A DNA stretch of 40,519 bases from IMG/VR virus record IMGVR_UViG_2529293139_000011; one strand, written 5' to 3'. A program made the translations under genes and the position numbers. The DNA comes from a virus (lineage: Duplodnaviria > Heunggongvirae > Uroviricota > Caudoviricetes). How positions within the stretch are numbered: the stretch's first letter is position 1; each line of letters starts with the position of its first letter. The notes below the pieces were generated by a model. The model was given only the letters and a program-made list of their open reading frames with translations. It was not told where the DNA came from and ran no database searches. Positions 23,262-26,198 of this stretch are shown in pieces.

Positions 23262-23699
23262 TTATTTCAGGCATTGCGTCCTGATGTACTCCTGCAGGTA
23301 GTTAACCTGCGCGGTTATCTTGTCGATTCCACTTCGGAGACGGTAATAATTGAGTTCAGCATCTGCTGTAAGTCCTGGGCTTTCTCCATCGCCCATGCTG
23401 CTGGCTCTGGCCGTTGACTTTGCACAGGTGGCGGCGACTTGCAGGCGCTTACGACCAGCAGAAACATCAGCACGGAGACTTTCGATAGTCGCGTTAGCAT
23501 CAGCAAGCTCCTTTGTATATCTGGCATCGAGTTCTGCTACATCACGTTGACGCTTCTGCATATCAGCGATGATGGATGTGGCCTTATCGCGCTGGTCTTT
23601 GTAGGCGATGGCGTTATCACGGTAATGATTAACAGCCCATGACAGGCAGACGATGATGCAGATAACCAGAGCGGAGATAATCGCGGTTACTCTGCTCAT
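23262..23699 (-). CDS. Rz: Inner-membrane spanin Rz
   Basis: 145-aa ORF with an N-terminal TM segment and coiled coil, immediately after the endolysin gene. Confidence 0.8.
23315..23500 (-). CDS. Rz1: Outer-membrane lipoprotein spanin Rz1, embedded in Rz in the +1 frame
   Basis: ORF 23315-23527; start placed at the internal ATG giving [25 protein letters not shown]...; lipobox VVSAC and Pro-rich tail. Confidence 0.65.
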
Positions 23700-24172
23700 A
23701 CCTCAATCTCTCTGACTGTTCCGCCAGCTTCTTTGAATTTTGTAATCAGGCTGTCAGCCTTATGCTCGAACTGGCCATAACCAGCCCCGGGCAACGAAGC
23801 CCAGATATTGCTGCAACGGTCGATTGCCTGACGGATATCACCGCGATCAATCATCGGCAAAGCGCCACGCTCTTTAATCTGTTGCAATGCCACAGCGTCC
23901 TGGCTTTTCGGAGAGAAGTCTTTCAGGCCAAGCTGCTTACGGTATGCATCCCACCAACGTGAAAGAAGCTGGTAACGTCCGGCTGCTGTTGATTTGAGTT
24001 TGGGGTTTAGCGTGACAAGTTTGCGAGGGTGATCGGAGTAATCAGTGAATAGCTCTCCGCCAACAATGACGTCATAACCATGATTTCTGGTTTTCTGCCG
24101 TCCGTTATCAGTTCCCTCTGACCACGCCAGCATATCGAGGAACGCCTTACGTTGATTATTGATTTCCACCAT
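23696..24172 (-). CDS. R: Endolysin R (lambda-type lytic transglycosylase)
   Basis: 158-aa [42 protein letters not shown]... recognised as near-identical to lambda R. Confidence 0.9.
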
Positions 24173-24479
24173 CTTCTACTCCGGCTTTTTTAGCAGCGAA
24201 GCGTTTGATAAGCGAACCAATCGAGTCAGTACCGATGTAGCCGATGAACACGCTCGTTATATAAGCGAGATTGCTACTTAGTCCGGCGAAGTCGAGAAGG
24301 TCACGAATGAACCAGGCGATAATGGCGCACATCGTTGCGTCGATTACTGTTTTTGTAAACGCACCGCCATTATATCTGCCGCGAAGGTACGCCATTGCAA
24401 ACGCAAGAATTGCCCCGATGCCTTGTTCCTTTGCCGCGAGAATGGCGGCTAACAGGTCATGTTTTTCTGGCATCTTCAT
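24156..24479 (-). CDS. S: Holin S (lambda S107/S105 type)
   Basis: 107-aa [37 protein letters not shown]... recognised as near-identical to lambda S, with the dual-start MKM motif. Confidence 0.9.
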
Positions 24480-24599
24480 GTCTTACCCCCAATAAGGGGA
24501 TTTGCTCTATTTAATTAGGAATAAGGTCGATTACTGATAGAACAAATCCAGGCTACTGTGTTTAGTAATCAGATTTGTTCGTGACCGATATGCACGGGC

Positions 24600-24640
24600 A
24601 AAACGGCAGGAGGTTGTTAGCGCAGCCTCTTGCCACCCGC
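24600..24640 (-). terminator. tR'-like terminator (minus-strand GGCAAGAGGCTGCGCTAACAACCTCCTGCCGTTTTGCC)
   Basis: Hairpin plus U-tract matching my recollection of the lambda tR' / 6S RNA 3' end, upstream of S. Confidence 0.55.
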
Positions 24641-24774
24641 TTTCACGAAGCCAGCCATTGCGCTGGTTTTCTTTTATGCAAAGCACACCGCACCGTAGCC
24701 ACAGCGGATAAGGTGATTATTTTTGTCTGTCTGGTATTTGGCTTGATGTGCTTTCAGAAAGGCCGTGCTTAAAA

Positions 24775-24808
24775 CGCAAAAAGCCCCGAGCTATTAACTC
24801 AGGGCTTT
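24775..24808 (-). terminator. Promoter-proximal hairpin with U-tract downstream of pR' (minus-strand AGCCCTGAGTTAATAGCTCGGGGCTTTTTGCGTTTT)
   Basis: 8-bp stem with one G-U pair, 7-nt loop, then TTTTTGCGTTTT, ~30-60 nt downstream of the predicted pR' start. Confidence 0.5.
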
Positions 24809-24841
24809 ATTTAACGAGTGCATTTATCCATCGTTGAGTCA

Positions 24842-24870
24842 AATTTACCCAACTTTATTCAAAAAGTCAA
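24842..24870 (-). promoter_or_regulatory. Late promoter pR' (-35 TTGACT at 24865-24870, -10 TAAATT at 24842-24847) with the Q engagement (qut) region
   Basis: Minus-strand TTGACTTTTTGAATAAAGTTGGGTAAATTTGACTC closely matches lambda pR' as I recall it; located between Q and S. Confidence 0.75.
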
Positions 24871-24912
24871 TATTATGCCGTTAATATGTTGCCATCCGTG
24901 GCAATCATGCTG

Positions 24913-25536
24913 CTAACGTGTGACCGCGTTCAAAATGTTGTCTGCGATTGACTCTTCCTTGTGGCATTGCGCCACCAGAGCGTCATACAGCGGCTTAACA
25001 GTGCGTGACCAGGTGGGTTGGGTAAGGTTTGGGATTAGCATCGTCACAGCGCGATATGCTGCACTTGCTGGCATTCTTGAATAGCCGACACCTTTGCATC
25101 TTCCGCATTCTTTCTCAACAACTCTCCCCCACAGCTCTGTTTTGGCAATATCAACCGCACGGCCTGTACCGTGGCAATCTCTGCATCTTGCGCCCGGCGT
25201 CGCGGCACTACGGCAATAATCCGCATAAGCGAATGTTGCGAGCACTTGCAGTACCTTTGCCTTAGTATTTCCTTCGAGCTTTGCCACACCACGGTATTTC
25301 CCCGATACCTTGTGTGCAAATTGCATCAGATAGTTGATAGCCTTTTGTTTGTCGTTCTGGCTGAGTTCATGCTTACCGCAGAATGCAGCCATTCCGAATC
25401 CGGCTTGTGATTGCGCCATCCCCATAGCAGCCATCACATCAGTACCGGAAAGAGAGTCAGAAGCCGTGGCCCGTGGTGAGTCGCTCATCATCGGGCTTTT
25501 TGGCGAATGAAATTTAGCTACGCTTTCGAGTCTCAT
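24913..25536 (-). CDS. Q: Late gene antiterminator Q (lambda type)
   Basis: 207-aa [34 protein letters not shown]... with a Cys-rich zinc-binding region; recognised as lambda Q-like. Confidence 0.85.
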
Positions 25537-26198
25537 GCGCCTTCTCCCTGTACCTGAATCAATGTGAGGTTTCCGCAGAACACTGCGCCGGTATCGATAT
25601 ACATCTGGTTGGCAAACTTGAGTGGTTTCACTGCTGGCGTATGACCAAAGATGAACGTGTCCGCGCCTTTGATTTCTTTCACGATCCCGTCTTGTGAGTT
25701 GCTGATTCGTTCGCGGTTCCAGATTACCTGCTGATGATCAACTGGCTTTCCAAACTCGTATTCGTCACAAGGATAATCGGCGTGGCAGATGACATATTTT
25801 TTATCTTTGCTCACCAGTTCGATGATTAACGGAAGTTCATCTGCTTTATGGGCAAGAGCTTTAGCCAGAATTTCTTTGTCGTAATCGAGATTAAAGAACC
25901 AGCCACCGCCATTAAGCATCCAGTGATTGACGTTTCCGCGCTCTGATAAGCCATCAATCATCATTTGCTCATGGTTTCCACGTACAGCTCTGAACCAGGG
26001 GAATGTGATTAATTCCAGGCATTCGACGTTCTCTGTACCGCGATCGACCAAATCGCCAACCGAGATAAGCAGGTCTTTTTTGGTGTCGAATCCTATCGTC
26101 TCCAGTTTTTTCATCAGGTTCGTGTAGCATCCGTGCAGATCGCCAACTACCCAAATATTTCGGTATTTGCTGCCATCAATTTTTTCGTAATAGCGCAT
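25533..26198 (-). CDS. Ser/Thr protein phosphatase (lambda PPase / NinI-like)
   Basis: ORF 25533-26273; start placed at the ATG at 26198 ([25 protein letters not shown]...) after GGAG; metallophosphatase motifs GDLHG, GDLVDRG, GNHE. Confidence 0.85.

Follow-up and report, generated by a model that had tools for sequence, protein, structure and literature searches.

The 433-bp non-coding stretch between the late-gene antiterminator gene Q and the holin gene S (minus strand) of IMG/VR record IMGVR_UViG_2529293139_000011 raises the question of which of its hairpins is the terminator that Q has to override. The window is the whole stretch of DNA that was analysed, 40,519 nucleotides in length. 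In the initial annotation, a strong hairpin with a U-tract 30-60 nt after the predicted start of the late transcript was described as an extra terminator in front of a tR'-like hairpin at 24600-24640. From its sequence, the promoter-proximal hairpin is identified here as the tR' of a P22-type leader, which is already annotated, and the feature is an ordinary and known one. The observation was partly confirmed; the interpretation given to it was partly supported and mostly wrong. The features of the locus are collected in Table 1.

Table 1. Features of the Q-S region, in the order of late transcription (positions in the window)
Feature	Position	Strand	Basis
Gene Q, late-gene antiterminator, 207 aa	24913..25536	-	ORF and identity to lambda Q
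Late promoter pR' (P late), TTGACT-17-TAAATT	24842..24870	-	Consensus scan; promoter annotated in HK140 and P22 records
qut site (-17 to +14)	24822..24852	-	P22-pbi delimitation mapped onto identical sequence
5' stem-loop of leader RNA, +1 to +23, AACGAUG...C.UCGUU	24813..24835	-	Predicted fold
P22-type late terminator (tR' / t late), hairpin and U-tract	24778..24808	-	Fold, scan, P22 annotation
Leader segment without lambda counterpart, +59 to +186	24650..24777	-	Common to HK140, HK022, HK97, mEp phages and Emek
Imperfect leader stem-loop, conserved (the 'tR'-like hairpin')	24590..24646	-	Fold, lambda alignment
Remaining S leader, common to lambda	24480..24589	-	Near-100% identity to lambda, HK140 and Emek; fold
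Holin gene S, 107 aa, dual start MKM, first late gene	24156..24479	-	ORF; counterpart annotated as holin in lambda and HK140

Gene Q lies directly upstream of pR', with a gap of 42 bp between its end and the -35 element, and the encoded protein is identical to lambda Q in 206 of 207 residues. Q is the lambda allele, and the lysis genes of the window are lambda S/R alleles. As a whole, the window represents a Sf6/HK620-like (P22-like) prophage with a late-control and lysis module of the lambda type (Q-S-R); Sf6 covers 60% of positions 15600-40519 at 97.7% identity. A tRNA scan of 24000-25600 identified no tRNA genes, and some relatives have tRNA genes in that slot. Inside Q, the sequence TTGCGAGCACTTGC on the plus strand (25236-25249, antisense to the gene) matches the CII/C1 site pattern TTGC-N6-TTGC. 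This site is probably the equivalent of lambda paQ and of 'P a23' annotated in P22-pbi, that is, a promoter for a Q-repressing antisense RNA.

A sigma-70 consensus scan of 24100-25100 returned one promoter, against 1.6 expected by chance. Since a consensus match is not above chance here, pR' was identified instead by its identity to lambda pR' and to P22 P late. The -35 element (TTGACT, 24870-24865) and the -10 element (TAAATT, 24847-24842) form the lambda-identical motif that had been recognized at the outset. The Q-binding element is located in the 17-bp spacer, which differs from lambda at two of its 17 positions and is identical to that of P22 P late. According to the phage L genome paper, the antiterminators of lambda and P22 are interchangeable; the two substitutions, which are common to P22, are therefore expected to be tolerated.

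The start of the RNA (+1) is the A at 24835, the same base as the 5' nucleotide of P late RNA in P22-pbi and the first A of the -10-like motif AACGAT (24835-24830, +1 to +6). The motif is identical in lambda and P22. It is taken here to be the sigma-70 pause element and, from what we know of lambda pR', a pause is presumably to be expected at +16/+17 (24820/24819). The stem-loop predicted at the 5' end of the leader RNA has an equivalent predicted in the lambda leader, and in a few relatives one of its pairs is broken by a change. As far as sequence can tell, the locus contains the elements of a lambda-Q-type late switch, namely a Q homologue, a promoter with a Q-binding element, a pause element and an intrinsic terminator; on this point the initial annotation was right.

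The terminator hairpin (24808-24780) comprises 13 pairs, and a UUUUU stretch is located at 24782-24778, the first three U of which close the stem. Its predicted energy lies between -18.6 and -19.1 kcal/mol (z -4.7), which was not reached by any of 200 shuffled sequences. Counting from +1, hairpin and U-tract extend from +28 to +58, in good agreement with the distance that had been reported. In the record of P22-pbi (AF527608) the annotation at this place consists of 'P late or P R'', the qut site, the '5'-nucleotide of P late RNA' and a terminator, 't late or t R'', which is antiterminated by the gene 23 protein. The same inverted repeat is named 'terminator tR'' in X78401 and 'rho-independent terminator' in Emek. 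By analogy with gene 23 antitermination, the hairpin would indeed be a terminator for Q to override, as had been proposed. It is not an extra one, since according to these three records it is the tR' of this leader type.

The comparison with P22 is close over the whole switch. No difference between the two sequences occurs from the -35 element as far as the hairpin's 5' arm. The annotated P22 terminator has the same stems, GCCCUGAG/CUCGGGGC, and the same U-tract, and the loop alone differs (UUAAUAG here, UUUAACCG in P22). The terminator is found at +28 to +58 in the window and at +28 to +59 in P22, and the holin start codon at +357 in both. After about +86 the divergence of the P22 leader is greater, yet the leader can be aligned over its whole length; at megablast level, the segment of the leader that has no lambda counterpart is similar in P22 only up to this point. 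A further difference is that the lysis genes and Q are lambda alleles here. Almost no covariation was detected in the terminator hairpin among the relatives compared, and the near-invariance of the hairpin makes the test uninformative. One relative displays a U-A pair in place of a U-G wobble, and single contigs have stem mismatches or 1-nt deletions. The structural support is therefore thermodynamic and by annotation, and not evolutionary.

The relation to lambda was investigated by aligning the window with lambda (NC_001416), HK140 and the P22-like phage Emek using MAFFT. Starting at the end of Q, the window is identical to lambda across pR' and up to about +16, except for three substitutions upstream of +1. 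Identity to lambda is back at CTTCGTGAAAGCGGGTGG, about 205 bp before S, in line with the lambda match that had been noted in this region. After about +16 the sequences are unrelated over about 170 nt in the window versus about 410 nt in lambda. No similarity was found between positions +17 to +189 of the window and +17 to +432 of lambda, the local alignment score being 16 against a shuffle mean of 17.4. A score below the shuffle mean indicates that the replacement of the segment is non-homologous and that the juxtaposition of the hairpin with tR' in the MAFFT alignment is no evidence of homology. Homology of the short hairpin to lambda tR', as suggested by MAFFT, was rejected on the same ground. 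The statement that lambda has no such hairpin at this position was consequently correct, and the hairpin is not the ordinary lambda 6S terminator, to which no significant similarity was obtained, but is of the P22 type instead.

In lambda, the RNA starts at 44587, the tR' hairpin and its U-tract are located at +135 to +193 (44721-44779), and the start of S is at +600. The 194 nt of lambda 6S RNA on Northern blots (preprint 10.1101/2024.10.31.621285) are in agreement with this layout. No homology to the lambda 6S RNA body and tR' (44587-44780) was found in the window, from which the targets of the 6S and LPR2 probes are absent. Both loci share Q, the promoter, the spacer (apart from its two substitutions), the pause element, the regulatory logic and the last 205 bp or so of the S leader. 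In contrast, the leader bodies display no detectable sequence similarity, and the terminated RNA of 194 nt in lambda would be replaced by one of about 58 nt here. On this comparison, the promoter-proximal hairpin is assigned as the tR' of this phage, a shorter and non-homologous alternative to the 6S body and tR' of lambda. The minimum-energy fold of lambda 6S RNA contains a 9-bp hairpin at +26 to +59 (L001 813-846), near the distance of the P22-type terminator and lacking a U-tract; it is absent from the centroid fold and has no detectable similarity in sequence to the P22-type hairpin.

The following sequence of events can be proposed by analogy with lambda and P22. The promoter pR' would fire constitutively, and rebinding of sigma-70 to AACGAT would cause the polymerase to pause at +16/+17. 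In the absence of Q, the polymerase would stop at the intrinsic terminator and release an RNA of about 58 nt. If Q occupies its site between the -35 and -10 elements, it would be loaded onto the paused polymerase and, together with NusA, would render the polymerase terminator-resistant. Q-dependent read-through and a short RNA are asserted for P22 by the GenBank annotation and by PMC7547250; the work on NusA and nascent RNA length (PMC4914094) is about the pause position and not about terminator proximity. The locus thus very probably represents a standard late switch of the lambda-Q / P22-gp23 kind with a P22-type leader, in which pausing, termination and read-through would follow lambda and P22 biochemistry. 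Beyond a correct annotation its significance is small, as this is the textbook Q-controlled late terminator in the form of P22, HK022 and HK97.

A different arrangement had been proposed initially, in which a promoter-proximal terminator is added to a lambda-like tR' at 24600-24640 and the tandem pair renders late expression strictly dependent on Q. A hairpin is clearly present there at +202 to +236 (24634-24600), its inner stem occupying 24634-24605 and the GUUUU that comes after it 24604-24600; it is a conserved feature of lambda-like leaders and may have some backup terminator activity. It is, however, not lambda tR', which sits in the segment replaced here; it aligns to lambda 45030-45066 (+444 to +480), about 250 nt downstream of lambda tR'. 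In the window it falls at +196 to +236, near the distance of lambda tR' from the start, and this resemblance in position probably caused the misassignment; the reading of an extra terminator goes back to a mistaken placement of lambda tR'. The stem contains an A-C mismatch, its energy is -13.5 kcal/mol (-20.2 in lambda), it is followed by four U, and it was not called by the terminator scan. Across contigs, its central pair varies (G/A/T against C/A) without compensation. In the P22-lineage phages P22, SI8, NM-3 and SE16 the stem-loop is kept and the U-run is replaced by UGAUCU or UGAUUU, and in the best fold of the window the U-run forms an internal loop of a longer stem. None of the records for lambda, HK140 and P22 annotates this hairpin as a terminator. 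Two tandem terminators as a designed feature are thus very unlikely, and in this phage the hairpin could serve as a weak backup terminator at most.

The promoter-proximal hairpin might also be viewed as a mainly generic and possibly bidirectional insulator, whose role would be to terminate the early-right operon downstream of Q or to stop antisense transcripts. An A-run before the stem and a T-run after it could allow the hairpin to work in both directions, and the same hairpin of 30-33 nt follows an endolysin gene in phage AH01 and a different antiterminator gene in phage ES2. Against this, it stands at +28 just after qut in each lambda-type pR' locus examined, and the P22 annotation describes a terminator that is antiterminated by Q/gp23. 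An insulator role would add to the role as target of Q rather than replace it, and as the main function it is extremely improbable.

The extended stem-loop at 24590-24646, into which the second hairpin is embedded, is best described, from its fold and conservation, as a structured and conserved part of the S leader and not as the principal terminator. Its outer helix is paired in nine of nine sequences, including P22, SI8, NM-3 and SE16, with one CG<->UA exchange and UG intermediates. The covariation analysis gave one compensatory pair with 96% of cells paired, which is not significant (72 of 500 shuffles were as good). A role in processing or stability is possible. Identity with LPR2 was considered for the hairpin at 24600-24640 and rejected, as the LPR2 probe maps to lambda +230 to +264, in the lambda-only segment that is absent from the window.

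A short terminated transcript had also been anticipated in the initial annotation, together with the idea that it could be an abundant small RNA. By analogy with P22, for whose late promoter a short RNA has long been known (PMC7547250), an RNA of about 58 nt is indeed expected. The idea of a small RNA is not new: lambda lysogens contain abundant 6S RNA, similar short antitermination-regulated RNAs from the late promoters of phages 21, phi80, 82 and P22 are described, and so is StxS, an Hfq-dependent small RNA of Stx phages (PMC7547250). StxS resembles the RNA considered here in being a short constitutive RNA from an antiterminated late promoter, ended by tR'. It differs in that it comes from Stx phages, and the likeness is one of description.

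It was therefore weighed whether the RNA of about 58 nt acts in trans as an Hfq-binding regulator in lysogens, as StxS does in Stx phages. In lambda lysogens pR' is constitutive and 6S RNA is detected, and Hfq binds both 6S RNA and LPR2 (preprint 10.1101/2024.10.31.621285); StxS illustrates that such by-products can acquire regulatory roles (PMC7547250). The predicted fold consists of the 5' stem-loop, about four unpaired nucleotides and the terminator hairpin, and the layout with a terminator hairpin, a U-tail and an A/U-rich linker before it is usual for Hfq binding. The short cassette is moreover nearly invariant across many phages. However, the cassette is no more conserved than the DNA around it, and an RNA made almost entirely of two hairpins, with about four unpaired nucleotides in between, leaves little room for a seed. 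The Rfam scan of 23500-26000 (E<=1) gave a chance match to snoU85 only and no known RNA family, and the E. coli matches described below carry no ncRNA annotation. A trans-acting regulatory function is accordingly considered unlikely. The broader proposal, that the nearly invariant P22-type leader RNA of about 58 nt, which would be constitutive in lysogens of a large group of E. coli, Shigella and Salmonella prophages, would be a functional Hfq-associated regulator of the StxS kind rather than an inert by-product, is regarded as quite unlikely.

The distribution of the leader was analysed in phages and in bacterial genomes. HK140, HK544, HK022, HK97, the mEp phages and Sf101 contain the whole 601-bp region at 95-98% identity, and the leader is also found in Emek. 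At least 80% of a 236-base query containing pR', the hairpin and the next segment was recovered in 265 of 5426 complete E. coli genomes, under whose matches nothing is annotated. Should the short RNA turn out to be regulatory, it would be relevant to these 265 genomes. BTP1 was considered as a source of published transcriptome data and found unsuitable, because its Q gene is a different one and its leader contains tRNA genes.

IMG/VR was scanned for the lambda-type pR'/qut core, which yielded at least 120 contigs. Among the matches listed, all leaders belong either to the lambda 6S type (about 57) or to the P22 type (about 68). In three contigs (L015, L097 and L105) the short cassette (+17 to +58) is followed directly by TGCACAACAGGTAAGAGCATT, a sequence that comes after tR' in lambda. 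In such recombinant leaders, lambda sequence is present on either side of the short cassette. This arrangement indicates that the short cassette and the lambda 6S body with tR' are alternative fillings of one slot. A lambda-type pR'/qut can therefore be followed by either of two unrelated cassettes, the 194-nt 6S or the one of about 58 nt, with recombination joints on both sides. Short-cassette prophages, this one included, have neither 6S RNA nor LPR2, so that roles assigned to those RNAs cannot be transferred to them. A long hairpin predicted in lambda (-40 kcal/mol) has TGCACAACAGGTAAGAGCATT as its 5' arm and includes the target of the LPR2 probe.

Several minor elements were found in the S leader. 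A hairpin with a stem of about 10 bp, GAACAAATC...GGATTTGTTC, is located at 24580-24540 on the minus strand; no variation was seen in its 3' arm among lambda, Emek and P22, and two changes are found in the 5' arm of P22. A CCCC/GGGG stem at the ribosome site of S (24499-24486) is presumably the sdi structure of lambda S. On the plus strand, 24647-24680 contains a terminator-like hairpin, GAAGCCAGCCATTGCGCTGGTTTTCTTTTAT (-11.5 kcal/mol), which is oriented against late transcription. Among the matches listed, 38 of the 64 leaders of the P22 type contain its sequence, as against none of the 55 of the lambda type, and the consensus scan detected no promoter feeding this antisense hairpin (24647-24670). 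A GTG-initiated ORF of 51 aa at 24531-24686 on the minus strand is annotated as 'hypothetical protein' in HK140 and probably also in ECP1 and Sf101. As it overlies the conserved structured leader common to lambda, it is probably not a gene.

The terminator hairpin was also detected, over 30-33 nt and at 97-100% identity, in phages of other genera, namely Cronobacter phage ES2 (L007 1201-1233) and Pantoea phage AH01 (L008 1201-1230). In ES2 it is located about 45 nt after a promoter-like TTTACT-17-TATGAT, and the antiterminator gene upstream of it encodes 254 aa. In AH01 the gene that precedes it encodes the endolysin. Apparently, the hairpin travels as a small module.
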